This document shows, in pieces, positions 1 to 37,781 of a DNA stretch of 64,000 nt; the first letter of the stretch is position 1, and every line of letters begins with the position of its first letter. Under the pieces are notes generated by a model. It worked only from the letters and a program-made list of their open reading frames with translations. It was not told the origin of the DNA and did not search any database. Position numbers and translations under genes: made by a program. Location: contig JBGAIN010000005.1 in NCBI GenBank assembly GCA_044225505.1, forward strand, positions 62,001 to 126,000, given 5' to 3'. The DNA is from Limisphaerales bacterium (GTDB lineage: Bacteria > Verrucomicrobiota > Verrucomicrobiia > Limisphaerales > SIBE01).

Positions 1-2333
1 ATCTCTGGCGCCAGGGCAAAGAAGTTTTGACTCAAGAAGACATCTTCGTTTCCGTCGCCATCGAGGTCGCCGATACTCACGCCAAAGGCCGGGGCGAACT
101 GGGCCTCGACCGGCAACGGCCGCGCTTCGAAAGACGTGCCGCGATTCAGGAACAGCATCGACGTCACGGTCTGGACAGACATCACCTGCGCTGCTTTCGC
201 TCGGTCGCCCAGGATCTCCTCGACGCTCGCTCCGCCAAAGGCCTCGTGCGCTGTCATCCGTTCTCGCAGGAACGGCAACGCTCGCGCCAAGGAATCCAGG
301 CTGGCGAATGGGACTGCCTTGCCCATTTCGCGGTTCCAATACGCCTCGATCACTGCTACTCCCCCATCCCTCGCGAAATCGCCGTAGAACGTTCGGACGT
401 CGCCAGCGGCCCAATTCTGGTAACGCTGATTCCAGCCCCAGTTGCTAGCGACAATGTCCATTCGACCATCCCCGTCCAAGTCACCGGTCGCGACACCATT
501 CCACCAGCCAACAAATCGGTCCAAGCCCAATTCCTTTGTCACTTCGTGCAGCATGCCACCCCGCGTTCTGAACACCCGCAATGGGCCCCCTTCGCAAGCC
601 AGGAGGAGTTCGAGTATCCCATCGCCGTCCAAATCGCTCCAGACAGCGCCGCTCACCAATCCCAGGTTGCGAAGCCCGCGACTGTTTTCCGAGTCGAGTT
701 CCCAATGGCCGTCCACTTCCCGCAGGAGCATCGAGGAGGCCGGTTCCGGATAACGCCCGCCCACCACGCGGCCGCCGACAAATAGGACCAGGCGTCCCTG
801 CCCTTCGGGTTCCGCCCAGGCCATCGGTCCGGTGCTCGAGACTTGCCCAGGGAACGCGTCATCCACCTGAGGGGCTTGCCAGTGGAATTGCCGAACCGCT
901 GGCCCAGCCGCGACTCCATCCTCGTAGTTCGCTGATCCCGCCAGGACTGTCACTCGCCCGTTCTTTCCCTTCCAGCCTAGCAAACTGGTTTGGTCACGGG
1001 TTACGGGTTGGTTGAAAGGGGCGTCAGCGACCCGATTGAATCCTCCCTGGCCGTCATTTTTGAAAGCGGCTAATTTCCCGCCTGCACCGCTCCCCACGAT
1101 CAGGTCTTCGTGGCCATCTCCATCCAAATCGACCCAAGCCACGCCCGGGCCTAACTGACTCAGCCGCCGCTGCAACAACGGCTGACGTCCGAAGTCATCG
1201 AACGCATTCTCTTGATGCCGATGATTCAGCCGCCCGCTCACGTCTTCGAAGAACGGCCCTGGAGACGTAGCCTTTGACGGCGGATCGCTTGGGCGCGTTT
1301 CAGATTCGTCAATTTCATACACCCAATTCGGTGCCAAATCCGAAATCGCACTGGTCTTTCCCCCTCGCCACTCCACGTCGATACTCAAACGATTGGTCAT
1401 CCCGCCGGTGGCAAAGGTCCGCATCGCGTCATCGCTTGAGAGGTAACGCCCCGCTGCCATCATTTCCTGTGACTGAACCACCGGGCCGCCGCGCACCGTC
1501 AGGCGGGCGCCCGTGCCGCGAGTCAGGCCGGGACTGCCGTGCAATCGAACCGCAATGCGTGGCGCTCCGGCATTGTTTCGATAGAGCGCCGCCGGTCCAT
1601 TCAAGCGGTTGACCACGACGTCCAGATCCCCGTCATCATCGAGGTCAGCCAAGGCCATGCCTTGCGCCACACCCCGGGAATCAAATCCCCACTTCGCGCC
1701 CATCTCTTCAAACGTCAGATCCCCTCGATTCCGAAACGCCAGCAACGGCAGTTCCAGTCTCCCGAAAGCGTTCTTCAATTCCAGGATTTGGGGCACGGTC
1801 AGTTTCTGCTGCGCGATCTGCCTATTTAACATCCGTGTCCGGTCAGCATTCATGGAATCCCGCTCGTTGCCCGTCGCGATAAGGGCATCTTCGTAACCAT
1901 CCAAATCCACATCGACGAAGACAGGCGACCAGGACCATTCCGAGGCATAGAGATGGGTCAACTGCCCTATCTCCGCAAACGTGCCGTCGCCGCGATTCAG
2001 CTGCACCACATTGCGCGAATATTGCGGCCGGTTCTCCCATTCGCCCACCACCGGTGCGGGCGGCAAGATATCCGGGAGCTGATTCGCGCGCTTTCGGTGA
2101 TCGCGGCTGATCATGTCGACCACGAGAAAATCATCAAACCCATCCCGATTCACATCGGCAAAGTCCACCCCCATGGAAAAGAGAGGGGTCGTGCGCATCG
2201 CGAGCCTGGGCAGTGCCCGGAAAAAACCTTTGCCATCGTTGATCCACAGCCGGTCTGGCGAACTGAAATCATTGCAGACGTAAAGGTCCGGCGCCCGATC
2301 TCGGTTGATGTCGCGGAAGGTCACGGACAATCC
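1..2333 (-). CDS. FG-GAP/VCBS repeat + ASPIC/UnbV (CRTAC1-like) protein, paralog B, downstream part; runs off the left edge
   Basis: Manual minus-strand translation is open from about 2333 to base 1 (GLSVTFRDINRDRAPDLYVCNDF ... ADLDDDGDLDVVVN ... GGPVVQSQEMMAAGRYLSSDD ... GDLDGDGNEDVFLSQNFF) and is colinear with the 3178..6585 protein. Probably absent from the ORF track because it has no stop in the window. Confidence 0.88.
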
Positions 2334-21872: not shown

Positions 21873-22430
21873 ATGAGACGATTACTCAATCCGGCAGTGC
21901 TGGCCGCCATTGCGGCAGTTTTGGTCTGGCTACCCGTCACGAGCCGAGCGCAACAAGGAGGAGGGGGCGGCGGCGGTCGAGGCAATTTTGACCCTGAACA
22001 AATGCGCCAGCGGATGATGGAACGCTATCGCGAGGTCCTGGAAGTTAAAGAGGACGAAGCATGGAAAGCGATTGAAAGTCGCATCACCAAAGTGAACGAG
22101 GCGCGGCGGGAAGTCGGAATTGGCGGGATGCGTGGTATGTTTGGCGGAGGGCGTCGTCCTGGTGGTGGAGGTGGCGCGGAGGCATCGTCGACGGACAGCG
22201 AACGTCGCCCGCGAGGTGGCTTTGGCGGACAACAGAGCGCCGCGGCTCAAGATCTCCAGAAAGCGATCGATTCCAAAGCGTCAGCCGAGACGATCAAGGC
22301 CAAATTGGCTGCATATCGGGAGGACAAACAGCAAAAGCAGGCCAATCTAGAGAAAGCTCAGGAAGATCTGAAGAAAGTCCTGACACTGCGCCAGGAAGCC
22401 GCCGCGGTCCTCGCCGGACTTTTGGACTAA
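21873..22430 (+). CDS. Periplasmic helical protein with Gly-rich linkers (Spy/CpxP/ZraP-like architecture)
   Basis: Signal peptide ending SRA|Q, NFDPEQMRQRMMERYRE, C-terminal LKKVLTLRQEA (LTxxQ motif). Confidence 0.8.
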   Translation: MRRLLNPAVLAAIAAVLVWLPVTSRAQQGGGGGGGRGNFDPEQMRQRMMERYREVLEVKEDEAWKAIESRITKVNEARREVGIGGMRGMFGGGRRPGGGGGAEASSTDSERRPRGGFGGQQSAAAQDLQKAIDSKASAETIKAKLAAYREDKQQKQANLEKAQEDLKKVLTLRQEAAAVLAGLLD

Positions 22431-22492: not shown

Positions 22493-24238
22493 ATGAGCGA
22501 CCTGCTCGAGAAAATGGTTGCCGCCAAGCAACTCTCGGCCAATGACGCCGCTCAGCTGGCCGCTCCTCAGAACAACGGACGCGGCACGCCACCTCTCTCG
22601 GAGGAGGAAGTCCTGCAATGGTTGGCCAAGGAATATGACTTGGGCTACACCTCCCTCGACGAGATTGAGCCTGACAAAGAGGTCCTTTCCCTCTTTCCGG
22701 CGCGCATTCTCCTAAAGAATGAGTTACTGCCACTCCGCCGTGTGGACGGATGTGTCGAGGTCGCCACATGCCGGCTCTTTGCCACGCACGGTCTTGATAC
22801 CCTCAAGACGATGACTGGGCTTCGCCTGCGTCCGGTCTTGGCTCCCACGGAAGCTATTCAACGTGAGATGAAGAAGCGCCTGGGCGTTGGCGCCGACACC
22901 ATTGGAACGTTGGACGAAGAAAAATCGTTCGAAGTGGTCGATGAGACGGGAGAAGAGGATACGAACCTCGACAATGCCGCCGAGGACGCTTCGATTATAC
23001 GCTTTGTCAATCAGGTCTTGCGCGACGCCATCGAACTCCGCGCCTCGGACATACACCTGGAACCTTTCGAGGATGAACTTCGGATCCGTTACCGCATTGA
23101 CGGTGTGCTGCAAGATGTCCCTGTTCCCGCACAGGTGAAACGGTTTCAGCCCGCGATCGTTTCGCGGGTGAAAATCCTCAGCCACTTGAATATCGCCGAA
23201 AAGCGGCTGCCGCAAGATGGTCGAATCAAGATTCGAATTGACGATGCTGAAGTGGACATCCGGGTGTCCGTGATACCTATGATTCACGGCGAGGCCGTCG
23301 TGATGCGGTTGCTCCGCCAAAACGCTAGCCTCCGAGGCATGCGCGAATTGGGCATGGACACTCGAGAACTGCAGAGTTTTCAACGGGTGCTCCAGCTGCC
23401 CCACGGCATTATCCTGGTGACCGGCCCGACGGGCAGCGGAAAAACCTCGACGCTTTACACCGCTTTGCACGAGATCAATGACGCGGTGCGCAAGATCATC
23501 ACCATTGAAGATCCCGTCGAATATCAACTCAAAGGCGTCAATCAAATTCAAGTTTCTGAAAAGGCAGGGCTCACCTTCGGTCGCGGGCTACGTTCCATCC
23601 TCCGCCACGATCCGGATGTCGTTCTGATCGGGGAAATTCGAGACAAAGAGACGGCTCAAATCGCCGTGCAAGCGTCGCTCACGGGACATTTGGTGTTCTC
23701 CACCCTTCACACCAACGATGCGCCAGGCGCACTCACCCGATTGGTCGACATGGGAGTCGAGCCTTATCTTGTCGCGTCCTCTTTGGAAGCGGTCCTGGCG
23801 CAACGCTTGGTTCGCCTTCTCTGCAAACACTGTAAACAGGTGGACGATTCGCCAACGGCCGCCGCTTTCAAAGCTCAGGTTGGAATCCCAGCGAATACCA
23901 GAATCTACCGCTCGGTCGGCTGCAGAGAATGCCGCAACACCGGCTTCCATGGACGTCGCGGCATCTTTGAGTGGATGGACACGGACAACGAGATCCGCCA
24001 ACTCGTCCTGAACAGCCGGTCGACCGATGAGATTCGGACCGCTGCCCGCCGCGCTGGAATGAAGACGCTGGCGGACGATGGCTGGCGCTTAGTGCGTCAG
24101 GGCGAAACCACGGTGGAAGAGGTCCTCAGCGTAACGACGGCGAAAGAAGTTTCGCTGACCACCGTCGCTGGGGCTAACGCCAACGGTGCTGCAGAAGACG
24201 TTTCCCTCGCTCAGATCGCAGTCACTCGATCTAACTAA
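22493..24238 (+). CDS. gspE: Type II secretion ATPase GspE/PulE
   Basis: ASDIHLEP, RLPQDGR, Walker A GPTGSGKT, TIEDPVE, RHDPDVVLIGEIRD, STLHTND, CKHC...CREC. Confidence 0.95.
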   Translation: MSDLLEKMVAAKQLSANDAAQLAAPQNNGRGTPPLSEEEVLQWLAKEYDLGYTSLDEIEPDKEVLSLFPARILLKNELLPLRRVDGCVEVATCRLFATHGLDTLKTMTGLRLRPVLAPTEAIQREMKKRLGVGADTIGTLDEEKSFEVVDETGEEDTNLDNAAEDASIIRFVNQVLRDAIELRASDIHLEPFEDELRIRYRIDGVLQDVPVPAQVKRFQPAIVSRVKILSHLNIAEKRLPQDGRIKIRIDDAEVDIRVSVIPMIHGEAVVMRLLRQNASLRGMRELGMDTRELQSFQRVLQLPHGIILVTGPTGSGKTSTLYTALHEINDAVRKIITIEDPVEYQLKGVNQIQVSEKAGLTFGRGLRSILRHDPDVVLIGEIRDKETAQIAVQASLTGHLVFSTLHTNDAPGALTRLVDMGVEPYLVASSLEAVLAQRLVRLLCKHCKQVDDSPTAAAFKAQVGIPANTRIYRSVGCRECRNTGFHGRRGIFEWMDTDNEIRQLVLNSRSTDEIRTAARRAGMKTLADDGWRLVRQGETTVEEVLSVTTAKEVSLTTVAGANANGAAEDVSLAQIAVTRSN

Positions 24239-24249
24239 CCTCGTTCGCC

Positions 24250-25509
24250 ATGGCCGTCTTTCAGTACAAAGCGCTTCAGGGTAACGGATCGATCGCCGAA
24301 GGTGAGATCGAGGCCGGTGGTCGCCAGGAAGCTCTCCGCCAAATGGAAAGCCGCGGGCTGCGTCCAATCCGCTTGGCAGAACGCCGCACCGGCAAGACCG
24401 ACCGGCCCGCCCCTCCGACCAACGGCGCCCCGACGACCGGTCCATTGAAAATCTCCTTCGGCGGAGCGAAGAAAATCACGGCCCGCGTCCTGGAAAATTT
24501 CACACGCTTGCTCTCGAGTTTGTTGGCCGCAGGCGTCCCGCTTAGCCGCGCATTAGTGATTCTGCAGAAGGAAGCAGCCAATCCCGTGGCCAAGGCGAAG
24601 TGGAAGGAGATTCATGACTCCGTCGTCGACGGGATGTCCTTAGCCAATGCCATGGGCAAATCTCCGGATACCTTCCCGCGGGTCTATGTGGCCATGGTAG
24701 AAGCCGGAGAAACTGGCGGGTTTCTCGACGTGGTGCTGGCCCAGATCGCCGATTTCCAGGCCCGCGAAAAAGAGATGCGCGCGAAAGTCATGACCGCTCT
24801 GCTTTACCCGACCATTCTACTCTTTCTCGCAACCGGTGTCCTGATCTTTCTTCTCGTGTTCTTTATCCCACGCTTTCAGTCGATTTTCGCGGGTTTCGGG
24901 GCGCACCTGCCCCTGCTGACCCAGATGATCGTCTCCACCAGCGAAATCCTGCGCTCCTACGGGCTGTTTGTGCTCGTGGGGGTGGTCTTGGCAGGGTATC
25001 TGGTCCGCACCTGGGTTGTATCGCCAAAAGGGCGACGAGCATGGGAAGGGCTTATGCTCCAGCTCCCGGCGGTAGGGCCCTTGGTCGCTCAATTCGCCAT
25101 GTCTCGCTTCTGCCGAATGCTCGGCACATTGCTCGGGGCTGGCGTCCCCTTGATCAATGGCCTCAATGTGGCACGACGCTCCATCGGAAACCAAATCCTG
25201 GTCGACGCCGTGTCGAATTCGATCGATCGCGTCAAGGAAGGCAAACAACTTGGACCAAGTCTCGCCGACTGCGGTTCCCTGTTTTCGGGTTCTGTTCTCG
25301 AAATGATTTCGGTGGCAGAAGAAAGTGGACGGTTGGATCAGGAGCTCGTCCGCATTGCGGATGTGACCGAGGGCGATCTGGACCGCCAGCTCAAGACGGC
25401 CGTGGCCCTGGCTGAACCGCTCATGCTTTTCTTTATTGCCGCGTTTATCGGCACGATCTTTATCGGGATGGTGATCCCTATCTTCTCACTCCAAGACTAT
25501 ATCAAATGA
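24250..25509 (+). CDS. gspF: Type II secretion inner-membrane platform protein GspF
   Basis: FTRLLSSLLAAGVPL, AGETGGFLD, ALLYP, AEESGRLD, LAEPLM; three TM segments. Confidence 0.95.
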   Translation: MAVFQYKALQGNGSIAEGEIEAGGRQEALRQMESRGLRPIRLAERRTGKTDRPAPPTNGAPTTGPLKISFGGAKKITARVLENFTRLLSSLLAAGVPLSRALVILQKEAANPVAKAKWKEIHDSVVDGMSLANAMGKSPDTFPRVYVAMVEAGETGGFLDVVLAQIADFQAREKEMRAKVMTALLYPTILLFLATGVLIFLLVFFIPRFQSIFAGFGAHLPLLTQMIVSTSEILRSYGLFVLVGVVLAGYLVRTWVVSPKGRRAWEGLMLQLPAVGPLVAQFAMSRFCRMLGTLLGAGVPLINGLNVARRSIGNQILVDAVSNSIDRVKEGKQLGPSLADCGSLFSGSVLEMISVAEESGRLDQELVRIADVTEGDLDRQLKTAVALAEPLMLFFIAAFIGTIFIGMVIPIFSLQDYIK

Positions 25510-26009
25510 AACTCCCACACTCGGCATCAACCATGAGAATCCGCCGTCGGCAAAACTCTGGCATTCGCACCTCTGGCACGGGCCCGCGCCAAGGGTTCAC
25601 GTTGATTGAACTCCTGCTTGTTTTGGTCATCCTGGGCATTCTGGCCGCCTTGGTCGTTCCGAAGTTCTCAGGACGCACCGAACAAGCGCGCGTTACCGCA
25701 GCCCACTCGCAAATCGCAACCTTTGGGACAGCCCTGGACGCTTTTGAAGTCGACAATGGGTTTTATCCGAAAGGGCGCAATGGCCTGCAGGACCTGGTGC
25801 AGCAGCCGCGCGACGCACAGAATTGGAAAGGACCTTACCTCAAGAGCGATATCCCGGTCGATCCTTGGGGAAATGCTTACATTTATGAATGCCCGGGCAA
25901 GCACAACTCGACTGGTTACGATCTCATGTCGGTCGGACCGGACGGCCGGGAAGGTGGCGACGATGACATTACAAACTGGCAGCAGCCCAATCAACGTCAG
26001 CAACGTTAA
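25506..26009 (+). CDS. gspG: Major pseudopilin GspG
   Basis: [57 protein letters not shown]. Confidence 0.95.
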   Translation: MKLPHSASTMRIRRRQNSGIRTSGTGPRQGFTLIELLLVLVILGILAALVVPKFSGRTEQARVTAAHSQIATFGTALDAFEVDNGFYPKGRNGLQDLVQQPRDAQNWKGPYLKSDIPVDPWGNAYIYECPGKHNSTGYDLMSVGPDGREGGDDDITNWQQPNQRQQR

Positions 26010-26547
26010 GTTACGCGACGCGGTTGGCTTCACTTTGATCGAACTGATCCTGGTTATGGCCCTCCTCGTCATTGTGCTTTCCGTGACCGCTCCGTCGCTA
26101 TCGCGCTTTTTCCGAGGTCGAGCGCTCGACTCCGAAGCGAAACGGTTCCTGGCCATGACACGTTATGGACAAAGCCGCGCTGTGTCAGACGGAGTGCCCG
26201 TGGTGCTTTGGATCGACGCCAAAGAACCCGCTTACGGTTTGCATCTGGACAGCAGCTACGTTGATCGCGACCTCAAAGAAGTCCAGTTCACTTTGGCCAA
26301 AGACGTCCAAGTGGAGGTTGTGCAGTCCAACGAGTCGCGGCGAGAAGCCACCCTCTGGAAAGGAAACGGGGGCTTTGGCGCGGCTTTGCCGAAAATCCGA
26401 TTTACGCCGGACGGATTCATTAGTTCGAGCAGTCCCGAACGAATCGTGTTCCGACAGGCAGACGCTGGTGAAATCTGGATTGGGCCTAGTCTCAACCATC
26501 TGAACTATGAAATTCAGACGAACCAATTCGCGCGAGTCTTGCGCTAG
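25963..26547 (+). CDS. gspH: Minor pseudopilin GspH/FimT-like
   Basis: G|FTLIELILVMALLVIV, YGQSRAV, IRFTPDG; nearest in-frame ATG is at 25963. Confidence 0.85.
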   Translation: MTLQTGSSPINVSNVKLRDAVGFTLIELILVMALLVIVLSVTAPSLSRFFRGRALDSEAKRFLAMTRYGQSRAVSDGVPVVLWIDAKEPAYGLHLDSSYVDRDLKEVQFTLAKDVQVEVVQSNESRREATLWKGNGGFGAALPKIRFTPDGFISSSSPERIVFRQADAGEIWIGPSLNHLNYEIQTNQFARVLR

Positions 26548-26917
26548 CCTGGGGCGCGACGCCTTTACGCTCGTCGAGGTGCTGGCATCCCTGGTTTTCA
26601 TGGCCATCGTCATTCCGACGGCCGTGCATGGACTGCGGATCGCGAGCATGGCCGGACAGATGGGCGAACGCAAAGCGGTGGCAGCTCGCATCGCTGACCG
26701 CGTCCTGAACGAATTAGTGGTCACTCGCCAATGGCAGAATGCCGCTCAGAGCGGCGTGGTGCAGGAAGGACCCATTCCTTACCGTTGGCGGACGCTCACA
26801 GAACCTTGGATTCAGCAGAACGTGCTCCGCCTGATGACGGTGCAAGTCACATTTCCCATGCAAGGACGCGACTATGACGTCCGTCTTAGCACGATCGTGG
26901 ACACGGCCGTGCAATGA
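26507..26917 (+). CDS. gspI: Minor pseudopilin GspI-like
   Basis: A|FTLVEVLASLVFMAIVIP; position in operon. Confidence 0.82.
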   Translation: MKFRRTNSRESCASLGRDAFTLVEVLASLVFMAIVIPTAVHGLRIASMAGQMGERKAVAARIADRVLNELVVTRQWQNAAQSGVVQEGPIPYRWRTLTEPWIQQNVLRLMTVQVTFPMQGRDYDVRLSTIVDTAVQ

Positions 26918-27711
26918 ACTTACCAACTCCAAATCCTGACGGAGCAGCCTGGCGACTCAGTCGCCGGACGCGCGCAGCTGCCGCGCGCGCTCGAGGGACT
27001 TGGACAACGGGATTCACGCTGATTGAAATGCTACTGGCGGTCGCCATCTTCGCGATCGTCCTCGTCGCCATTCACACCGTTTTCTATGGAGCGCTACGCC
27101 TAAGCGCCCGAACCACAGAGTCCGTCGAGCAGGGCCTTCCTTTGCAGCAGTCCTTGGCCATTTTGCAGAGAGATCTCGCTAACCTGGTCCTGCCGAGCGG
27201 AACGTTCTTCGGCGAACTTCAAACATCCCAAAGCGCGACGGGATCGACCAACACCCTGAACGTGCTCAGCCCTGTCAACGACGCCATTATAGGGCAGTCC
27301 AGTCCCGCATTCTTTACCGCGACAGGCGTGGTGCAAGAGGGCGCTCCCTGGGGCGATATTGTCCGCGTTGCCTATTATCTAACTCCTTCCACCAACCAGA
27401 CACCTGGCAAAGACCTTATCCGCTCCGTGACTCGCAATCTCCTACCGGTTATGCAGGAGCAACCCGAGAATCAATGGCTCATGGGAGGGCTTCAAAGCAT
27501 CGCGTTCTCCTATTACGACGGCCTGCAATGGCGCGAGTATTGGGACTCCACGACGGAGACGAACAAACTCCCGTTTGGCATCAAAGTGCAATTGCAAATG
27601 GTGCCGGACACCAACGACCGCTCCCGCCGGGACCCCGTGGAGCTGGTTGTCCCTATTGTCGTTCGGCCGGGCACCAATGAAACTGAGACCGCCACGGGAG
27701 GTGCCCAATGA
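26914..27711 (+). CDS. gspJ: Minor pseudopilin GspJ
   Basis: G|FTLIEMLLAVAIFAIVL, LQRDL, VAYYL, YYDGLQWREYWDS, LP.GIKVQL. Confidence 0.9.
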   Translation: MNLPTPNPDGAAWRLSRRTRAAAARARGTWTTGFTLIEMLLAVAIFAIVLVAIHTVFYGALRLSARTTESVEQGLPLQQSLAILQRDLANLVLPSGTFFGELQTSQSATGSTNTLNVLSPVNDAIIGQSSPAFFTATGVVQEGAPWGDIVRVAYYLTPSTNQTPGKDLIRSVTRNLLPVMQEQPENQWLMGGLQSIAFSYYDGLQWREYWDSTTETNKLPFGIKVQLQMVPDTNDRSRRDPVELVVPIVVRPGTNETETATGGAQ

Positions 27712-29087
27712 AACTGCCGCTGGCCAACCGCGACGAATCGAGCGCGCGCGGGTCGGTCTTGATCATCGTGCTCTGGATTGCCTTTGGGCTGGTTAGCATC
27801 GCCTTGTATTTTGCACAGAGCATGAGTTTCGAGCTGCGCGCTGCGGATAATCGGGTCGCCAGCTTGGAAGCGGAACAAGCGATCGCCGGCGCGGTTCGCT
27901 ACGTGAGTAATGTTCTCTCCAACTCGCCGTACCCGGGCTCGCTTCCGGACGCTTTATCTTATCGCCGGGACGCCGTCCCGGTCGGCAACGCGACGTTTTG
28001 GCTCATTGGTCGGTCAGACCAACAAACCAACCGGGACCAGCCGAGTTTTGATCTAATTGATGAAGGTTCCAAACTCAATCTGAACAAAGCGTCAGTTGAG
28101 ATGCTCGAACTCCTTCCACGGATGACTCCCTCGCTGGCGGCCGCAATTGTGGACTGGCGGGATAGCAACAGCGATTCCAGCGAAGGCGGAGCGGAGGACG
28201 ATATCTACCAGCGCTTGAACCCCGCGTATCGCTGCAAGAACGCCAATTACGAAACGATTGACGAGTTACGGTTAGTTTACGGTATGGACCTCGAGCTCTT
28301 GTATGGAGAAGACGCCAACCTCAACGGCGTCCTCGATCTCAATGAAAATGACGGTGACCAGTCGTTCCCTTTTGACAATCGTGACGGCCGCTTGGATCCC
28401 GGACTGTTCGAGTATTTCACGGTCTACAGCAAAGAGCCGACGTCGCGAACGAACGGCTCGCCGCGGGTTAACGTCACCAATCAGACCGAGCTGGCGTCTT
28501 TGCTGATTGAGAAATTTGGCTCCGACCGAGCGAGTGAGATTCAGCGCCAGTTGACCGGCGGCGGCGGGCGTGGAAGCGGGACGGGAAGCCGGACGCTTTC
28601 CGTGCGGAGCGTTCTCGAGTTTTACATGGTTAGCGGGATGACAGCTTCCGATTTCGCTCAGATCGAAAACGACATTACGGTCTCCGGGACCAACGCGCTC
28701 GGGTCGGTGAACGTCAATACCGCGAGCGAGGCCGTCCTCGCGTGCATTCCGGGAATCGGTTTCGAGAATGCGCCTGGACTAGTCGGTTACCGGCAGAACA
28801 ACCGCGCCACTCTCCTGGCTAATCCCTCGATCGCGTGGGTGGCGGATATTTTGAGCCAGACGAATGCGGTTCAGGCGGGGCCCTACTTGACCGGGCATAG
28901 CTATCAATTCACTGCGGATATTGCTGCAGTGGGCCACTACGGTCGCGGGTTCCGTCGGGTTAAATTTGTATTCGACACCAGCGAAGGGGCGCCACGCGTG
29001 ATCTTTCGACAAGATTTGACTCACCTAGGTTGGCCACTTGGAAAAGACGTGCGTAACGTTTTGCTAACAGCCGCCACCCGACCATGA
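27708..29087 (+). CDS. gspK: Minor pseudopilin GspK
   Basis: RG|SVLIIVLWI, DEGSKLNLN, AAAIVDWRD, ELRLVYGM, VNVNTASEAVLACIPGI. Confidence 0.92.
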   Translation: MKLPLANRDESSARGSVLIIVLWIAFGLVSIALYFAQSMSFELRAADNRVASLEAEQAIAGAVRYVSNVLSNSPYPGSLPDALSYRRDAVPVGNATFWLIGRSDQQTNRDQPSFDLIDEGSKLNLNKASVEMLELLPRMTPSLAAAIVDWRDSNSDSSEGGAEDDIYQRLNPAYRCKNANYETIDELRLVYGMDLELLYGEDANLNGVLDLNENDGDQSFPFDNRDGRLDPGLFEYFTVYSKEPTSRTNGSPRVNVTNQTELASLLIEKFGSDRASEIQRQLTGGGGRGSGTGSRTLSVRSVLEFYMVSGMTASDFAQIENDITVSGTNALGSVNVNTASEAVLACIPGIGFENAPGLVGYRQNNRATLLANPSIAWVADILSQTNAVQAGPYLTGHSYQFTADIAAVGHYGRGFRRVKFVFDTSEGAPRVIFRQDLTHLGWPLGKDVRNVLLTAATRP

Positions 29088-30562
29088 TTGGACTGATTCC
29101 CTTGAATCTCTATAAACTCAAACTGGGACGACGCTCAACGGAAGGCAGCAAACGACAAGCTCGCTCGTCCTTGCTAGGTCTCGCCCTTGACGGTCGGCGA
29201 ATGGAAGCCGTGCTTATGCGCCGCACCAATGGCACGCTTCGGATTCACGCGAAAGTGTCGAGCGCTCTCGAGCTCAATCTTCTCACCGACGCGCCTGAGC
29301 TGGTGGGACGCGAGATGCGCAACCAATTGGATCGCGCTGGAATTCATGAGCGGCAATGCTCTGTTTGCCTGCCCCTGGAATGGGCATTGACAGCGCAGGT
29401 AGCCTTGCCCGCGCTGCCGCCCGAAGATGTGGAGAGTTTTCTGAGCATGGAAGCGGAGCGGGCGTTCCCTTTTGCACCTGAAACTCTGGCGATGGTGACC
29501 TCTCGGTGCGTGGCTCCGGAAGGGACCCAATTTGCGACTCTCGTCGCGGTGCCTCGCGAGCATCTCACCACCTTGCAGAGTATTCTAAAAGCGGCACAAC
29601 TCAAGCCGGTCACGTTTTCCCTGGGGCTTTCGGCACTTCAAGATCCGACCGCGCCAGAAAGCAATGGGATTGCGGCTATCGCAATCGAGGAAAACGCCGT
29701 TCAGCTGCAGGTCTGTTGCGGCGGCGGAGTGGCCGCGCTTCGCACCCTGCAGGGAGCGCTCGAGGGAGACGGTGGCCGCAAGACACCCTATGCCGACGTC
29801 GTGGCCCGGGATCTGCGCATCACACTCGGCCAGCTGCCTCCCGAACTCCGCCACCTCCTCCGCCAAATCCGCGTTTTTGGCGCCAGTGACGAACTGCATC
29901 GCTTTGCCGAGGACCTTCGAGCACGAGCCAAACTGATGGGCTTGGACGTGACCGAAGTCCCGTCTTACACCCCCGATGATCCGTCTGTTCAACTGGCGGC
30001 GGCCGCGCCCGCCACGGCCGCGCTCGCTCTTGCCTCACGATTGCTCACAGGGCGCTCGCCGCAGTTCGAATTTCTCCCGCCCAAGGTCGGCGCTTGGAAA
30101 CAACTGACGAATCGGTATTCCTCGAAAAAGTTGGTTGCGGGCGCAGCAGTTGCGGGTGTGCTGCTCTTCCTGAGCTTGATGGCTTTCCTGTTTCAGCAGT
30201 GGCAGCTCGGACATTGGCGCAACCAATGGAATCGCATCCGGCCACAGGTCACTCAACTCGAAAACATGCAGCAGCAGATTCGGCGTTATCGGCCATGGTT
30301 CGATGAGTCTTTCCGCTCTTTGAGCATTTGCCAGAAACTCACCGAAGCGTTTCCTGAAGATGGATCGGTCGTGGCGAAGACGGTGGAGATTCGCGACCCT
30401 GGAAACGTCATGTGCACTGGCACCGCCCGGGATCAACAATCCTTGTTGAAGGTCGTCGATCTGCTTCGCGCGCAAAAGGAATTCTCGAGCGTTCAAGTCG
30501 ATCAGATTCGAGGCAAGCAATTCACCATCAATCTCCGCTGGGCGGAAGGAGGGTCTCTATGA
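29084..30562 (+). CDS. gspL: GspL-like (PilM-PilN fusion) assembly protein
   Basis: Cytoplasmic actin-like domain, FEFLPP, single TM, coiled coil and ferredoxin-like periplasmic end (CTGTARD). Confidence 0.8.
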   Translation: MIGLIPLNLYKLKLGRRSTEGSKRQARSSLLGLALDGRRMEAVLMRRTNGTLRIHAKVSSALELNLLTDAPELVGREMRNQLDRAGIHERQCSVCLPLEWALTAQVALPALPPEDVESFLSMEAERAFPFAPETLAMVTSRCVAPEGTQFATLVAVPREHLTTLQSILKAAQLKPVTFSLGLSALQDPTAPESNGIAAIAIEENAVQLQVCCGGGVAALRTLQGALEGDGGRKTPYADVVARDLRITLGQLPPELRHLLRQIRVFGASDELHRFAEDLRARAKLMGLDVTEVPSYTPDDPSVQLAAAAPATAALALASRLLTGRSPQFEFLPPKVGAWKQLTNRYSSKKLVAGAAVAGVLLFLSLMAFLFQQWQLGHWRNQWNRIRPQVTQLENMQQQIRRYRPWFDESFRSLSICQKLTEAFPEDGSVVAKTVEIRDPGNVMCTGTARDQQSLLKVVDLLRAQKEFSSVQVDQIRGKQFTINLRWAEGGSL

Positions 30563-31095
30563 ACTTGGACAACCGTCAACAACTCCTCGGCATTGTCGCT
30601 ATCGCTGCCGTCGTCCTCCTCGCTGGCGATCGACTCGTCCTCACGCCCATGATCAAGCTGTGGAAAGAACGATCCACCCAGATCGCGCAACTCCGGAAAT
30701 CGGTCGAGCAGGGAACCCACCTCCTGGAACGAGACAAGGTCATCCGAGAGCGGTGGGAAACGATGCGCACGAATGCACTCTCCGGGGAAGTGTCTGTCGC
30801 TGAGAATCAGATGTTGCGAGCCTTTGATCGCTGGTCTCAAGACAGTCGCATCGGCATCAATGGAATCAAACCTCAGTGGAAGCGCAGTTCGGATGATTAC
30901 GCGACGCTAGAGTGCCGGGTCGACGCTTCTGGAGGATTACCCGAAATCACACGCTTTCTTTATGAAATTGAACGTGATACGCTCGGTTTAAAGCTCGAGA
31001 TTGTGGAAGTGACGGCACGTGACGACCGCGGTCAGCAGCTAGCATTGGCTCTCCAGGTGAGCGGCTTGCAACTCAACCCACCCCCTTTGCCATGA
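30559..31095 (+). CDS. GspM/PilO-like protein
   Basis: N-terminal TM, coiled coil, G.LPEITRFLYEIE motif; ATGA overlap with gspL. Confidence 0.8.
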   Translation: MNLDNRQQLLGIVAIAAVVLLAGDRLVLTPMIKLWKERSTQIAQLRKSVEQGTHLLERDKVIRERWETMRTNALSGEVSVAENQMLRAFDRWSQDSRIGINGIKPQWKRSSDDYATLECRVDASGGLPEITRFLYEIERDTLGLKLEIVEVTARDDRGQQLALALQVSGLQLNPPPLP

Positions 31096-31679
31096 TTCCG
31101 ACGATTCCAAACTCTCGTCAATCCTGCGGCCCGAGAGGCTTCTCAGCCCGATGGCTGCTCAGCTTTCTCTTCATCATTCTCTCCTCGGGTTCGTCCCTAT
31201 CGGCCAAAGATACCAATTCCGTCGCCCGGCGCGACTATCCTAGTTTCAAAATGATCTCCGAGCGGAACATTTTTAACGCAAACCGGACCAGGCGCTCCAG
31301 CCGAGGGGGTGGGGAGACTCGCAAAGCCGCCCGCGTCGAAACGGTGACGCTCGTGGGAACAATGAGCTATGAAAAGGGACTCTACGCTTTCTTCGATGGA
31401 AGCTCTTCCGAGCTTAAGAAAGCACTGGGTCCAGGCCAATCCATTGCGGGATTTAAGGTGGCACAAATCACTTCGACGAGTGTCCGTCTGGAAACCGAGA
31501 GCAAAATGCTCGATCTCTTGGTTGGAACTCAGCTCCGTCGCGAAGACGAGGGCGAGTGGCAGGTGGCTTCAGCCCCCGTGGCGGCAGCCACAGCCCCATC
31601 TTCCTCGAGCGATTCTCCCGGAGATGAAAGCGATGTCATCAAGCGACTTATGCAACAGCGAGAACAGGAACTAAAATGA
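31092..31679 (+). CDS. GspC/PilP-like protein
   Basis: ERNIFN, TLVGTM...AFFD, GQSIAGFKVAQIT.TSVRL (HR-domain pattern), C-terminal RLMQQREQELK. Confidence 0.72.
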   Translation: MIPTIPNSRQSCGPRGFSARWLLSFLFIILSSGSSLSAKDTNSVARRDYPSFKMISERNIFNANRTRRSSRGGGETRKAARVETVTLVGTMSYEKGLYAFFDGSSSELKKALGPGQSIAGFKVAQITSTSVRLETESKMLDLLVGTQLRREDEGEWQVASAPVAAATAPSSSSDSPGDESDVIKRLMQQREQELK

Positions 31680-33490
31680 AAACTCCTTTACTGAGCATCC
31701 TCGGGTGCGGCGCTCTCCTAGCCTGTGCGTGGACTTCCTTGGCCCAACCAAGCGGAGCTCCAGCGGATGACCCTCCCAGCAGCCCAACGCCAGAATTGGC
31801 CCAGGACACGGCGCCTACCGCTCCGGAGGATGTCGCTCCAGCGGCTACTCCTGACGCCGCGCCCGCTCAAGAGACCGCACCTGCCGGACCGAACCGGAAT
31901 CGTCCGGCCCGGCCTCCACGGGGCGGTCCAGGAGTAGCTCGACCTGCCGCGGATACGCCCAGCGCTCCAGCGCCGATTGCGCCCAACGCCAATGGCACCA
32001 AAGAGCTGCGCTTGAACTTTCGCAACGCTCCTCTCGACACGGTGCTCAATTACTTGAGTGAAGCCGCCGGCTTCATTATCGAGCTGCAGACCGAGGTCAA
32101 AGGCAAGGTAACGGTTTGGAGCAACCAGCCCGTGTCGCAAGAAGAGGCCTTAGATCTTCTCAATTCGGCTTTAGACCGGAATGGCTACACCGCCGTCCGC
32201 AAAGGCCGGACTCTTACGATTTGGCCGAAGGAAGACGCGAAGAAGCGTGACCTCCCTGTGAAGAGCGGAAACAGACCGGAAGACATTCCCAAGAACGACG
32301 AAATGGTGACCCAGATCATTCCGATGCGCTTCATCAGCGCCGTCCAGGTCGCTCGCGATTTGGCGCCCCTCTTGCCCGATAAAGCGACCATGAACGCCAA
32401 CGAGGCCGGGAATTCCCTGATCATCACCGACACGCAAACCAGCATTCGACGCATGGCGGAAATTGTCCGAGCTTTGGATACCGCTATTTCCTCTGTCTCG
32501 GCCGTTCGCGTCTTCCCACTGCACTATGCCGATGCCAAGGCGCTCGCCACTGTGCTAAAAGATCTGTTCGCGCCGCAAGATACGGCGCGGACCACCGGGG
32601 GTGGCAACAACGCGGGTGGGGCAGCACGCTTTCTCAACCAGTTCCGCGGTGGTAATGCGGGAGGTGGCGCGGGTGGATTCGGCGGCGGTCCAGGTGGCTT
32701 TGGGCAAGGTGGCGGAGCGGCCGGAGGCGGAGCCAACGCGAGCTCAGGAGCGAGAGCTCCAACGCCGCGCGTCGTCGCGGTCGCGGAAGAACGGAGTAAT
32801 TCTCTGGTCGTAAGCGCCCCGGACGAGCAGATGCCGATGATTGAGGATCTGATCAAGCAAGTAGACACCAGTGTGGAAGACGTCACGGAACTAAGGGTCT
32901 TTCGCCTGAAGTATGCCGATGCCCAAGAGACCGCCGACCTTCTCTCGAATCTTTTTTCCGATACCGGAAGCTCATCTGGCAATCAAGGGAACCGTGGCGC
33001 CATCCAGTTCGGCGGCCGTTTTGGCGGTGCCGGTTTTGGAAATGCTTTTGGCGGAAATCGTGGTGCGTCGACGACCGGGGCAGAAAGCAGCCGCCTCCAG
33101 AAGCAAACCAAGGTCGTTGCGGTGCCGGACTTGCGCACAGGATCTGTGGTCGTGAGTGCCGCTCGGGAACTGATGCTGCAAATCTCCAAGATGGTTGAGG
33201 ACCTGGATTCGGACCCCGCGAAAAAGCAACAAGTGTTCGTCTTCGATGTGCAAAACACCGACCCTCAAGCCGTTCAAGACATTCTGCAAAGCCTGTTTCC
33301 AGCAGCCAACAATGGATCTTCTCTGAATAACAGCCGCCTGAATAACCGAGGCCAAACCGGCGTGGGTAACCAACTGAACAATCGCGCGACCCAAACGCAG
33401 AATCAGGGCGGATCACGTATTGGCTCGTCCGGGTTTGGGGGTTCCACAGGATCATCGGGCAGCTCCGGGTTCGGCGGCGGAGGGCGTTAA
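31676..33490 (+). CDS. gspD: Secretin GspD, N-domain polypeptide (N0 + NolW-like repeats, no secretin barrel)
   Basis: Signal peptide (SLA|Q), LNFRNAPL (N0), three complete NolW-like repeats plus the first half of a fourth, Gly/Phe-rich loops. Confidence 0.88.
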   Translation: MKTPLLSILGCGALLACAWTSLAQPSGAPADDPPSSPTPELAQDTAPTAPEDVAPAATPDAAPAQETAPAGPNRNRPARPPRGGPGVARPAADTPSAPAPIAPNANGTKELRLNFRNAPLDTVLNYLSEAAGFIIELQTEVKGKVTVWSNQPVSQEEALDLLNSALDRNGYTAVRKGRTLTIWPKEDAKKRDLPVKSGNRPEDIPKNDEMVTQIIPMRFISAVQVARDLAPLLPDKATMNANEAGNSLIITDTQTSIRRMAEIVRALDTAISSVSAVRVFPLHYADAKALATVLKDLFAPQDTARTTGGGNNAGGAARFLNQFRGGNAGGGAGGFGGGPGGFGQGGGAAGGGANASSGARAPTPRVVAVAEERSNSLVVSAPDEQMPMIEDLIKQVDTSVEDVTELRVFRLKYADAQETADLLSNLFSDTGSSSGNQGNRGAIQFGGRFGGAGFGNAFGGNRGASTTGAESSRLQKQTKVVAVPDLRTGSVVVSAARELMLQISKMVEDLDSDPAKKQQVFVFDVQNTDPQAVQDILQSLFPAANNGSSLNNSRLNNRGQTGVGNQLNNRATQTQNQGGSRIGSSGFGGSTGSSGSSGFGGGGR

Positions 33491-33533
33491 TGCCGTAAGA
33501 CAGTTCTCTTTCAAAACTCAGTTAAAGCACACC

Positions 33534-34679
33534 ATGCAAACTCATTTCACGTCATTGGTTGCCGGTTGTCTCATCCTCGGCGCCTTGTGGCTGGGCCCCG
33601 CGGCCGCGCAAGGGCAGGGTTTTGGCGGCGGCGGTGGCGGCAATTTCCGCTCGACGAGCCGGTCTTCCGCGAGTTATCCGACGAGCACTTCGGTCGGGCA
33701 AGCCACGTTCATGAGCGACCCGGAAACCCGCAAAGTCATCGCGGTGACAGATCCGGAAACCGCGAAATACATCAGCCAGATTATCACGAATCTGGACCGG
33801 CCCGCTCCCCAGGTTCTGATCAAAGTGGTATTTGTTGAAGCCACCTACAACAAGAACCTGGATTTCGGCATTGAAGGCGCCTATTCGAAGAATATCGGTA
33901 ACTCACAAACCAACGTGGTCAGCCAGGTCTTTGGCTTAGCACAATCCGGGGCTAGCCCGGTGCCTCCCGGAGCTGGTATTTACCAGATCCTGGGCAGCGA
34001 TTTTCAGGCGACCATCCGCGCAATTGCCCAGGCGGGGAAAGCGGAGATCTTGTCCCGCCCCTCGATTCTAGCACGCAACAATCAACAAGCCACGATCAGC
34101 CTGGGCCAAGAAGTCCCATTAATTACAGGAACTGTTTTCAGCGGCGTCGCTAACACCCCGATCAATACGATTCAATACCGGAACGTCGGAATCATTCTTC
34201 AAGTGACTCCGTTCATCACCTCGGATGGCATGGTGGAGATGGTCGTTTCGCCGCAAACCTCCGAATTGGCAGACCGGAGCCAATGGGTCAATATCGCCAG
34301 CGGCGAGAACACCTCGACCGCCGCGCCTGTCATCAATTCCCGAGCGGCCGACACGGTGGTAATCGTCCCAGATGGGCAGACGGCAGTCATCGGCGGCTTG
34401 ATGCAGAAGCAAAACCAACAAACGGACAGCAAAATTCCGGTCTTGGGCGATATTCCATTGCTCGGTAACCTCTTCAAACGGAAGATACGCAACGATACCA
34501 AAACAGAGCTTCTTATTTTCCTGACACCTCATATCGTGATGCATCCGTCACAACTGGCCGGGATCTCCGCAGAAGAACGAGCGCGCATGCAAGTGCCAAA
34601 ATCGTTCTCGGAACAGGAATTGGACCGTTTTCTGGACAAGATCCCGGCGAAGGCACCTGAGCCGGCTAAACCGCACTAA
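33534..34679 (+). CDS. gspD: Secretin GspD, barrel polypeptide with its own signal peptide
   Basis: MQTHFTSLVAGCLILGALWLGPAAA|QG, LDRPAPQVLIKVVFVE, LSRPSIL, YRNVGIILQVTP, DGQTAVIGGL, KIPVLGDIPLLGNLF, TELLIFLTPHIV. Confidence 0.93.
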   Translation: MQTHFTSLVAGCLILGALWLGPAAAQGQGFGGGGGGNFRSTSRSSASYPTSTSVGQATFMSDPETRKVIAVTDPETAKYISQIITNLDRPAPQVLIKVVFVEATYNKNLDFGIEGAYSKNIGNSQTNVVSQVFGLAQSGASPVPPGAGIYQILGSDFQATIRAIAQAGKAEILSRPSILARNNQQATISLGQEVPLITGTVFSGVANTPINTIQYRNVGIILQVTPFITSDGMVEMVVSPQTSELADRSQWVNIASGENTSTAAPVINSRAADTVVIVPDGQTAVIGGLMQKQNQQTDSKIPVLGDIPLLGNLFKRKIRNDTKTELLIFLTPHIVMHPSQLAGISAEERARMQVPKSFSEQELDRFLDKIPAKAPEPAKPH

Positions 34680-34829
34680 TGACCCGTCTTTGGCAACGGT
34701 CAGGAACAGCGGCGGACCTCCCGGGCCGGCGGTTCCGGCACCGCAGATCTGCCAGGCCTCCGAGGGTGGGTTGGAATGCGAGGCAAATCCCTTTGGCCGA
34801 TATGAACCTACGGTTGTCCTGCGCCAGCT

Positions 34830-36390
34830 ATGAATAAGCAAACGCGCGTGGTCTACAGCCTTTTGGGGGCGGTCTGGGTGTTAATGATCGCGTGGCAGCT
34901 GGTGGAGCACCTCCGCGTCAACCAAGCAGCGAAGGCGGCATTGATTAATCGAGCCCGAGATATTTCCACCACCGTCGGAATCGTGCTCCGTTCGCAGCGC
35001 CACCTCATTACCAAAGAACGCTTGGAGTCCGCTCTCCATTCGCTCCTTAAGCCCGAAGAACTGAATGCCGTGGCCATGCTGAACGCCGCTGGGGAGATTG
35101 TGGCCTCCGCTGGCACCCCGATCGATCTCAACATGGCCGGACTGGTGCCAACCGGAGAACATTGGGGTGACCGGACAGTCGCCCTCATGAATTTGGTTGA
35201 TCTGGGCACCAACGTCACGCTGGAAGCGGATGGCCCCCGCCCAACCATCGTCGTCCCCAGGAGCGAACTGTTCAACCGTTCCGGAACGAACCGGCCTCCG
35301 CCGGACATCGGACCGCCGCCGCCTCCCGGGATCTTCCGCCAACCGCCCTCCGTCCGCCCCGCTAGCGAGGACGACCGTTCTCTGCCGCCGGCCAACTCGG
35401 GAACCAATGGCTCCCTTGCGGAAGGAACGGGGCCCCCCAGGCCACGCGGTGATCGGGAGGGCCGATCCCCATTCAACCGCCCTTTCTGGATGAGCGAAAC
35501 CGAATGGAAATCGACGATCGCGAAGAAAGGGGTCCACAGCTTCGTGGTTGTCATGTCCAACCAAACCATGCGCGCCACGTCCAATCACGATCTCTGGCTC
35601 CGTTGCCTAATCACGGCGCTCGCCTCCGTGTCGGTCGCCGGCCTGGCTTTAGCCTGGAGCAATCTTGTCCGATCGGGGGAGTTGGAATTAAGGCTGGTGC
35701 GCGCTGCCGAGCTGAACGCTCGTCTCCGCGAAATGAGCGTGGCTGCCGCGGGCCTCGCTCACGAAACGAAGAACCCGCTTAACATCATTCGAGGCGTGGC
35801 TCAAATGATATCCAAACAGCCGGATGCACCCGCGGAGATTCGCCAAAAGACCCGGGGCATCGTGGAAGAAGCCGATCGTGTCACGGCGCAAGTCAACGAA
35901 TTCATCAATTTTTCGCGCCCTCGCCAACTCCGCCCAGTGGCGGTTGCTTTGAGTTCGGCCGTGGCAGAGGTGGTGCGGGCGCTCGGGCCGGACATCGACG
36001 AAAAATCGATCCGCGTCACGGTCCAGGAAGGCTTGCCTGCGATCGAAGCGGATGAACAGCAGCTGCGCCAGGCTCTGTTTAACTTGCTGATCAATGCGAT
36101 CCAGGCGCTGGAACCGGGCGGGGCCATCGAGATCGCCGGGCAAAGGAAGAATTCCCATGGTGCGGCCCTGGAGATTCGGGACAATGGCCCGGGTGTGCCT
36201 GAGGACCATCGCACCGATGTTTTCAAGCCCCTTCACAACGAATCAAAAGGGTACGGGGTTGGGACTCGCTGTTGTGCAGCAGATCGTGCTGGCGCATGGC
36301 TGGGAGATCGAGTGCCTGGCGAATCAGCCCCGCGGCGCCGTGTTCCGCATCTCCCACTTGCGCCTCGCTAGCTCTCCCGGACCGGTGTAA
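34830..36390 (+). CDS. Membrane sensor histidine kinase (NtrB/ZraS-like); frameshift near 36230
   Basis: Two TM helices, H-box AGLAHETKNPL, N-box NLLINAIQA, DNGPG; G2 box FTTNQKGTGLGL continues in another frame to the stop at 36390. Confidence 0.9.
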
Positions 36391-36401
36391 GGTAGGGCGG
36401 C

Positions 36402-37781
36402 ATGAAGCCCGCCAAATCGCTTCGGATCCTGATCGTCGATGACGACGCCGGGCAGCGCAGCCTTCTCGATTCATTCCTTCGCAGTCAGGGCTTTGAAACA
36501 ATCACGGTCGACTCCGGAGAACGAGCCCTGACGGCTTTGCAGCAGGGCCCGCTCGATATGATGATCTCGGACGTCCGCATGCCTGGACTGTCAGGCCTCG
36601 AAACGCTCCGGAGGGCTCGGCAACAGGGTGCGAAATTACCTATCCTGCTCGTCACCGCTTATGCCGATATTCGCGACGCGGTTGGCGCGATGCGCGACGG
36701 CGCGGTCAATTACCTGGCCAAGCCGATCGATCTGGATGAGCTCCTGATCTCGGTCCGAAAAGCCACCGGTCTCAGCGCCGGGGTCGCTGTCGATCCCGGC
36801 GGCAAGCCTCTCCCCGATTCCGTGATTGCCCAAAGTCCAATCAGCCGGGCTGTGTTCCGCGAAGCGGCGCTCGTCGCCTCCTCTGACAGTCGAATTCTGA
36901 TCACGGGCGAGAGTGGCGTTGGGAAAGAAATCGTCGCTGACGTGATTCATGGCTGGAGCGCCCGGAGCGATGGACCGCTCATCAAAGTGAACTGCGCGGC
37001 GATCCCGGAGAATCTGCTGGAAAGCGAGCTTTTCGGTCATGAAAAAGGGGCCTTCACCGGCGCTTACATTCAGCGGATCGGGCGATTTGAAGAAGCCCAT
37101 CATGGGTCCATCTTGCTCGACGAGATCGCGGAGATGCCACTTTACCTTCAAGCGAAGCTCCTGCGCATCACTCACGACGGTCGCTTTCAGCGCGTTGGCG
37201 CCAACCGAGACTTGCACTCGGACGCCCGTATCTTTGCGGCTACTAATCGTAATCTGGAGAAGGAAGTGGAAGCAGGCAAGTTCCGTGAAGATCTCTTCTA
37301 TCGGCTCAACGTCGTTGAAATCTTTGTTCCACCGCTGCGTGAACGGCGCGAAGATATTGTGCCGTTAGCGACCCAATTCGCTCGACACTTTACGCGGGGA
37401 GAAGTTCGGTTTTCCCCGGGCGTGATTCGCGCTCTCGAGCACTACCGCTGGCCGGGCAACATCCGCGAATTACGCAACGCCATGGAACGCGCCGCTCTCC
37501 TTTCGCACGGAGAGGTTATCATGCCGGAACATTTGCCCGCCCGCTTGCGCCAAGCTGCCAGCGACGGACCCGATGAAGCGGCTACGCAAACCAGCCGCCT
37601 CGAGGACATCGAACGCCAAGCGATTCTCCATGCCCTGCGCGAACATTCCTTTAACCGCAGCGAGGCCGCCCGCGCCTTAGGCATCAGCCGTCGTGCGTTA
37701 CTTTACAAGATCCAACGCTTTCGAGAGATGGGCTATGATGTGGGCCCCGCGCCACCGGACGGCCCCGGAGAGAGCTCCTGA
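36402..37781 (+). CDS. Sigma54-dependent response regulator (NtrC/ZraR family)
   Basis: Receiver domain (DVRMPG), GESGVGKE, GAFTGA, FREDLFYRLNV, WPGNIREL, Fis-type HTH. Confidence 0.96.
   Translation: MKPAKSLRILIVDDDAGQRSLLDSFLRSQGFETITVDSGERALTALQQGPLDMMISDVRMPGLSGLETLRRARQQGAKLPILLVTAYADIRDAVGAMRDGAVNYLAKPIDLDELLISVRKATGLSAGVAVDPGGKPLPDSVIAQSPISRAVFREAALVASSDSRILITGESGVGKEIVADVIHGWSARSDGPLIKVNCAAIPENLLESELFGHEKGAFTGAYIQRIGRFEEAHHGSILLDEIAEMPLYLQAKLLRITHDGRFQRVGANRDLHSDARIFAATNRNLEKEVEAGKFREDLFYRLNVVEIFVPPLRERREDIVPLATQFARHFTRGEVRFSPGVIRALEHYRWPGNIRELRNAMERAALLSHGEVIMPEHLPARLRQAASDGPDEAATQTSRLEDIERQAILHALREHSFNRSEAARALGISRRALLYKIQRFREMGYDVGPAPPDGPGESS

Follow-up and report, generated by a model that had tools for sequence, protein, structure and literature searches.

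A type II secretion secretin encoded by two adjacent genes and divided within its barrel-proximal N domain in Limisphaerales bacteria

Results

Two adjacent genes encode complementary parts of GspD

The window analyzed here, a 64,000-nucleotide stretch of the genome of a Limisphaerales bacterium (GenBank assembly GCA_044225505.1, contig JBGAIN010000005.1, positions 62,001 to 126,000), contains two adjacent open reading frames (ORFs), ORF1 and ORF2, that together encode GspD, the T2SS (type II secretion system) secretin (Table 1). This two-gene GspD, cut in the N domain next to the barrel, is real, old and conserved; it is neither an artefact nor a broken gene. An original prediction, made from the letters of the window, had read ORF1 as a signal peptide, an N0 domain, three NolW-like repeats and half of a fourth, and had read ORF2, after a 43-nucleotide gap, as a second signal peptide, a Gly linker, the missing half and the barrel. 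Pfam and piecewise profile matches bear out the former assignment, and profile matches together with a heuristic signal-peptide rule bear out the latter.

ORF1 opens with a putative signal peptide, read off the translation, that is separated from the N0 domain by about 80 residues of low-complexity sequence rich in Pro and Ala (31745-32010; to about residue 105). Three whole Secretin_N domains follow, scoring 42.8, 65.9 and 39.4 bits in the piecewise scan, and the second and third of them carry Gly-rich inserts between α1 and β2. The next segment matched positions 1-34 of the 69 positions in the Secretin_N profile (14.2 bits, E = 0.05), corresponding to the β1-α1 half of a fourth domain, after which ORF1 enters a Q/N/G-rich tail and terminates. 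ORF2 lies in a different reading frame. Its N-terminus has a hydrophobic core followed by AAA/QG and resembles a type I signal peptide, as judged by charge, hydrophobicity and comparison with relatives; a lipoprotein signal (VAG/C in the window copy) was also considered and rejected, as the printed signal peptides of relatives show no lipobox-like pattern. Beyond a Gly/Ser linker, ORF2 matched positions 30-69 of the same Secretin_N profile (16.8 bits, E = 0.0079), complementary to the half-domain match of ORF1, and then continued into the Secretin barrel and a C-terminal helical tail that extends to residue 381. No significant internal similarity between ORF2 and ORF1 was returned by BLASTP, for which the half-domain is too short, and detecting it needed a profile search.

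Against the GspD model TIGR02517, ORF1 aligned with positions 1-299 (221.2 bits) and ORF2 with positions 283-599 (241.2 bits), the cut-off being 351.35. The profile matches and this coverage of TIGR02517 thus identify ORF1 and ORF2 as complementary parts of one GspD, cut within the barrel-adjacent N domain. All the sequence and gene-context features by which a GspD is recognized (TIGR02517; PF21305 + PF03958 + PF00263) are present, namely N0, the Secretin_N array, the barrel and T2SS neighbors, except that no single polypeptide reaches the equivalog cut-off; two genes take its place at all 27 orthologous loci inspected.

The 43-nucleotide gap (33491-33533) contains no strong Shine-Dalgarno sequence. 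In a scan of 31000-35200 for promoter- and terminator-like sites, nothing was found on the + strand, the stretch between ORF1 and ORF2 included, and the counts did not exceed those in shuffled sequences. Three residues around the cut stand out in the alignment of relatives: an Arg (ORF1 residue 570, nucleotides 33383-33385), which is invariant within a conserved '..LNNR' motif of the otherwise low-complexity ORF1 tail, and Tyr48 and Gly55 of ORF2, both invariant. The '..LNNR' Arg, Tyr48 and Gly55 may form an extra interface. No '..LNNR' motif was seen by eye in the printed loops of the fused planctomycete GspDs described below.

Table 1. Features of the split gspD locus and of the T2SS gene row that precedes it (positions in the window).
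Feature	Position	Strand	Details
GspE	22493-24238	+	Pfam
GspF	24250-25509	+	Pfam
GspG	25506-26009	+	Pfam
GspH-like	within 25606-26547	+	Pfam
GspJ	26914-27711	+	Pfam
GspK	27708-29087	+	Pfam
PilM/GspL-like	29084-30562	+	Pfam
Two ORFs	30559-31095 and 31092-31679	+	no Pfam match
ORF1, N-terminal secretin chain	31676..33490	+	604 aa; stop TAA 33488-33490
Putative ORF1 signal peptide	31676..31744	+	residues 1-23; ...TSLA/QP
N0 domain of ORF1	32012..32206	+	residues 113-177; PF21305, 52 bits
Three whole Secretin_N domains of ORF1	32309..33217	+	about residues 212-271, 277-398 and 407-514; PF03958
First half (β1-α1) of fourth, barrel-proximal N domain	33233..33319	+	ORF1 residues 520-548
ORF1 Q/N/G-rich tail and stop codon	33320..33490	+	stop TAA 33488-33490
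Intergenic gap	33491..33533	+	43 nt
ORF2, C-terminal secretin chain	33534..34679	+	ATG start 33534; 381 aa
Putative ORF2 signal peptide	33534..33608	+	residues 1-25; ...GPAAA/QG
ORF2 Gly/Ser linker	33609..33692	+	invariant Tyr Y48, nt 33675-33677
Second half (β2-β3-α2) of split N domain	33693..33812	+	ORF2 residues 54-93
Secretin barrel domain of ORF2	34020..34538	+	residues 163-335; PF00263, 173.6 bits

The same cut is shared by all orthologous loci inspected

The ORF1 stop codon, the gap and the ORF2 start codon were bridged by contigs of three studies with zero insertions, deletions or changed letters; the runs were an activated-sludge metagenome, a bioreactor metagenome and one without an organism label, and one of the three is possibly the source of the window itself. 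We then compared 27 orthologous loci, 20 of them from the same genus, family or order, three from other parts of the class or phylum and four picked for their long open frames. The cut site was identical in 27 of 27, from the same genus to another class, and the two genes were adjacent and in constant order in every locus. The claim that the split is natural and divides one NolW/Secretin_N-type domain beside the barrel therefore holds. At each locus ORF1 ends with the conserved β1-α1 segment (consensus KVFVYxLxNADxxxVxxxLxxMF) followed by a Q/N/G-rich tail, and ORF2 has, after its start codon, a segment resembling a signal peptide, a linker rich in Gly and the conserved second half of the domain (consensus DPETRxLIVITDxET...NLDRPKPQVLIKV).

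What surrounds the cut is variable. With the window added to the 27 loci, ORF1 stops at TAA in 12 cases of 28, at TAG in seven and at TGA in nine; its frame agrees with that of ORF2 in 10 and differs from it in 18; and the gap, measured for 19 loci, ranges from 4 to 335 nucleotides. With the cut site constant while stop codons, frames and gaps vary, neither a recent mutation nor a sequencing error nor programmed frameshifting or read-through can be the general rule. Four loci have irregularities of their own: one is partly masked, including the ORF2 start (L024, G007), one has ORF1 spread over two frames of 335 and 304 amino acids (L028, G017), one has a single internal TAA in ORF2 (L052, G403), and in one ORF1 runs off the contig (L040).

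Of the relatives, 26 could be judged for a putative signal peptide at the ORF2 N-terminus, and every one has it (19/19 by a scoring rule, and 3/3 and 4/4 by eye). The 19 scored segments have an N-region net charge of +1 to +4 and a best 10-residue Kyte-Doolittle mean of 1.9-3.2, and by eye most of them carry a small-x-small site followed by Q. The segment retained this character at a mean pairwise identity of only 0.26, as expected of a signal peptide. The two half-domains have mean pairwise identities of 0.44 and 0.52, compared with 0.26-0.39 for the tails, linkers and signal peptide.

Distribution and origin of the split gene

Among 201 genomes of the window's order, 127 contain an orthologue of ORF2 (97 of the 142 high-quality ones; E <= 1e-70), and no fused form was found among these 127. 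The orthologue lies in a stop-to-stop frame of at most 516 amino acids in 122 of them, too short to hold the ORF1 part, and the other five, in frames of 584-942 amino acids, proved on inspection to be split, their frames merely continuing upstream. Whether relatives share the split, a check proposed with the original prediction, is thus answered in the affirmative by both the order sample and the 27 loci. Within 301 genomes sampled evenly from the phylum, only three others had an ORF2 orthologue (E <= 1e-45), all of them split; one of these three is a closed, single-contig genome of 4.15 Mb.

In a 5.8-billion-protein collection, the 120 top-ranking homologues of ORF2 measure 338-472 amino acids. 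PF00263 is absent from the 120 top-ranking homologues of ORF1 residues 400-604, though lengths of up to 1057 amino acids were admitted. The source names of the close homologues are Verrucomicrobia, Verrucomicrobiales, Verrucomicrobiia and Limisphaerales metagenome-assembled genomes (MAGs). The nearest one-piece relatives are GspDs of Planctomycetota (36-45% identity to ORF2, E of 6e-70 or weaker), found in Phycisphaerae and Tepidisphaeraceae MAGs and in Humisphaera borealis (P0124-P0242). These are colinear with ORF1 plus ORF2 but, unlike the window, have a single gene and no internal signal peptide; in one of them (P0125), ORF1 up to residue 541 aligns as far as position 589 and ORF2 from residue 59 aligns from position 641. 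The best longer match to ORF2 (P0123, 717 amino acids, E = 1.3e-77) combines GspE domains (PF05157, PF00437) with Secretin; it may be a gene-calling or assembly chimera and was set aside from the comparison with fused relatives.

In all 29 printed fused rows, the α1-β2 loop of the last N domain is about 60-130 amino acids long, rich in G/S/N/Q/T and located exactly at the cut site. The Gly-rich inserts in the whole N2 and N3 domains of ORF1 occupy the same position and resemble this loop. The long low-complexity loop in fused relatives and the similar inserts in N2 and N3 indicate that the cut fell in a long, permissive loop. A quick, unrooted maximum-likelihood tree (LG+G4) was built from 87 rows, comprising 23 split loci, every fifth short database match and every third fused match (last 430 amino acids). 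The 40 fused rows and the 47 rows that are split or short lie on opposite sides of one branch with a Shimodaira-Hasegawa-type likelihood-ratio (SH-aLRT) support of 100, which fits a single origin of the split within the tree sample.

Structure models of the split N domain

The fold of the two halves was modeled with AlphaFold2 on single-chain read-throughs of relatives whose two ORFs are in frame. Model 1, from a locus of the same genus (L021), comprises 595 amino acids and was computed from a 140-row alignment that included fused homologues, giving a mean predicted local distance difference test (pLDDT) score of 75.9. The elements of the divided domain, strand 123-128 with helix 134-144 and strand 273-287 with helix 289-302, have block-mean pLDDT values of 82-95, and the tail, the signal peptide and the linker between the halves are mostly below 50. 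Model 1 matched solved GspD structures with Z scores of 13-14.7, the highest being to the N3 domain and barrel of GspD from enteropathogenic Escherichia coli (5w68_A; Z = 14.7 over 293 residues, model range 122..569). A single N domain of InvG (2y9k_A) spans the range 121..306 of the model, with 65 residues superimposed at 2.6 Å.

Model 2 was built for the domain only (243 amino acids) from a locus of a different family (L039), using 31 rows of the split family alone. Its mean pLDDT is 64, and both halves reach 90-95. In a search of 48,161 chains, the top 16 matches to model 2 were all secretin N domains (Z = 7.7-9.5). The closest fit was to residues 243-326 of ExeD (6i1x_A), with 59 residues superimposed at 1.2 Å over the model range 9..211, and residues 282-360 of GspD superimposed with 65 residues at 2.0 Å; both fits span both halves. 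The two models show that one canonical N domain can be built from the halves within a single chain.

The split secretin ends a T2SS gene row

The secretin pair stands at the end of a complete, operon-like row of T2SS genes (22493..31679, +; Table 1). An ORF without a Pfam match (21873-22430, +) lies just upstream of gspE; its product has a signal peptide, a run of Gly residues and a helical region with charged residues. Directly downstream of the pair are genes for a histidine kinase and a sigma-54-dependent response regulator (34830-37781, +), which may regulate the T2SS operon. The genome contains one copy only of the ORF1-type gene.

Another contig of the same genome (C260 of G000; L048:958-13932, -) encodes a giant secretin of 4324 amino acids with 35 Secretin_N stretches (1202 bits in total), a weak N0 match and a C-terminal Secretin domain. 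Secretin-bearing open frames of 2948-4675 amino acids also occur in at least 10 related genomes.

Discussion

Like canonical GspD (PulD, XcpQ, EpsD, ExeD; 5w68, 5wq7, 5wln, 6hcg, 6i1x), the secretin of the window has N0, Secretin_N repeats, a barrel and a C-terminal tail, and sits in a T2SS operon; in comparison with E. coli GspD it has one extra N domain. It differs from canonical GspD in being made as two polypeptides, the second with a putative signal peptide of its own, and in having its cut within the N domain next to the barrel. Split secretins have precedents in the rhizobial type III secretion system (T3SS) and the mitochondrial T2SS; the one described here belongs to a bacterial T2SS and is cut in the middle of a domain. 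We found no published description of a split bacterial T2SS secretin in a literature survey judged partly by titles and abstract openings and with subscription journals outside its scope.

The rhizobial Rhc T3SS also encodes its secretin in two genes, rhcC1/nolW and rhcC2, the "functional significance not known" in the portions of the literature drawn on here (PMC3574062, PMC3973906), whereas the neighbors in the window are T2SS genes. On pNGR234a, NolW has N0 and one whole Secretin_N domain by Pfam, and RhcC2 has T2SS-T3SS_pil_N, BON and Secretin domains and lies beside a CpaD-family gene (L047, NC_000914.2 96669-98096, - strand). The nolW and rhcC2 genes are about 12 kb apart on opposite strands. 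From this domain make-up, the rhizobial break falls between domains and not within one as in the window; judging by its domains, RhcC2 looks like a Tad/CpaC-type secretin and not like a cut-off piece of SctC.

The closest parallel, drawn from part of a published description and not from sequence, is the mitochondrial T2SS of some protists. There GspD is reported to consist of several polypeptides (GspD, GspDL, GspDN1-3), among which a Secretin_N domain is divided between GspDN3 (N-terminal half) and GspDN2 (C-terminal half) (PMC8134430), so that its halves lie on separate chains, as they do in the secretin of the window. As described in that text, the mitochondrial system differs in being eukaryotic, in having the halves as free-standing small proteins and in missing N0 and part of the C-domain. 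The same source, in the part consulted, leaves the bacterial donor of the mitochondrial T2SS unresolved and describes an associated family, Gcp16, as shared only with bacteria of the Planctomycetes-Verrucomicrobia-Chlamydiae (PVC) group (PMC8134430). A Gcp16-like HEXXH motif is absent from the two ORFs upstream of gspE, and a degenerate HEXXH DNA pattern gave five matches in the window against a chance mean of 4.45, none of them near the operon. We regard an evolutionary link between the verrucomicrobial mid-domain split and the protist mitochondrial T2SS as highly unlikely; if true, the mitochondrial machine would stem from a PVC-like T2SS whose GspD had been split beforehand, or would have its closest living model in such a system.

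We propose that the pair probably functions as a two-chain GspD of the T2SS, whose parts are exported separately by Sec, re-form the split N domain in the periplasm and are thereby coupled 1:1. An ancestral single gene would have been cut in the long low-complexity α1-β2 loop of its barrel-proximal N domain, and the part downstream of the cut would have acquired a start codon and a Sec signal peptide. Sec would export each product on its own, and signal peptidase I would trim both. Once in the periplasm, β1-α1 from ORF1 and β2-β3-α2 from ORF2 would re-form one ring-building N domain, tying the N0-N1-N2-N3 stack of ORF1 non-covalently and 1:1 to the outer-membrane barrel of ORF2, to give an ordinary T2SS channel. 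Fragment complementation of this kind was part of the original prediction. It gains plausibility from the two AlphaFold2 models, which rebuild one N domain, and from the conservation of the halves above that of the flanking loops. What the data show is the split, its conservation, the complementary half-domain matches, the operon context and the ability of models to build one domain from the halves; separate export, cleavage, 1:1 assembly by complementation and function are inferred.

Several points weigh against this proposal. The models are single chains that run through a stop codon and speak to fold compatibility, not to assembly between chains; AlphaFold was trained on solved secretin N domains, and the alignment for model 1 contained fused homologues. 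A two-chain prediction with ORF2 27-135 and ORF1 399-604 (20-row alignment each) scored 0.16, with the mark at 0.32, and speaks neither for nor against binding of the halves. Either half-domain alone scores below the Pfam cut-off of 28.2 bits, and both are less conserved than the adjoining whole N3 (0.60, 0.62). The signal peptides were judged only by a rough rule of charge, hydrophobicity and conservation. Expression evidence consists entirely of two 151-nucleotide contigs (33530-33680 and 33731-33881) from one RNA library, which may hold DNA, and is too little to establish transcription or a transcript start.

The lower conservation of the half-domains relative to N3 would also be compatible with a different arrangement, in which ORF2 alone is the pore and ORF1 forms an independent periplasmic ring docking elsewhere, or in which the halves pair across protomers by domain swap. 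The invariant Arg in the ORF1 tail and Tyr48 in the ORF2 linker could belong to such another interface. We nevertheless consider this arrangement unlikely, as both halves keep the Secretin_N pattern throughout the clade, both models fold them into one canonical N domain, and the genes are always adjacent and single-copy. We also considered a regulated cage, in which the N-domain stack could be removed or swapped; the original prediction had suggested a detachable or exchangeable one. A non-covalent joint makes removal physically possible, and the giant many-N-domain secretins in the same genomes are an unusual periplasmic architecture; with a single ORF1-type gene in the genome, no alternative partner in sight, adjacent genes in every inspected locus and nothing resembling a promoter or terminator between the ORFs on the + strand, however, we found no support for a detachable or exchangeable cage and rate it as distinctly improbable.

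Production of one chain by programmed stop-codon read-through or frameshifting could be entertained for the loci in which the two ORFs share a frame with one or two stops between them. It is extremely unlikely given the larger number of loci in other frames, the use of all three stop codons, the range of gap lengths and the start codon and putative signal peptide that follow the stop in every judgeable locus; in the read-through product, moreover, a hydrophobic segment would lie midway along a periplasmic loop. The only argument for a pseudogene, or for an error of assembly or sequencing, is a bare stop codon inside a normally one-gene family. This reading has next to no credibility, as the junction reads alike in the contigs of all three studies, conservation of the split extends across the order and further, with a closed genome among the holders, and both halves are under visible constraint.

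Secretins have been studied as single chains of 600-800 amino acids. Pore assembly is said, in the part of the source drawn on here, to require their barrel-proximal N domain (N3) (PMC8134430, which cites earlier work). A clade-wide N3 rebuilt from two separately exported chains would, if true, be a natural split-protein experiment, and could show in which order ring and barrel assemble, whether the N3 fold depends on a covalently continuous chain and where secretins tolerate engineered cuts. Neither half reaches the equivalog cut-off for GspD, so annotation may count many Verrucomicrobiota as having no complete T2SS secretin. For the mitochondrial T2SS, whose half-domain proteins are unexplained, the split GspD also offers a counterpart in bacteria.

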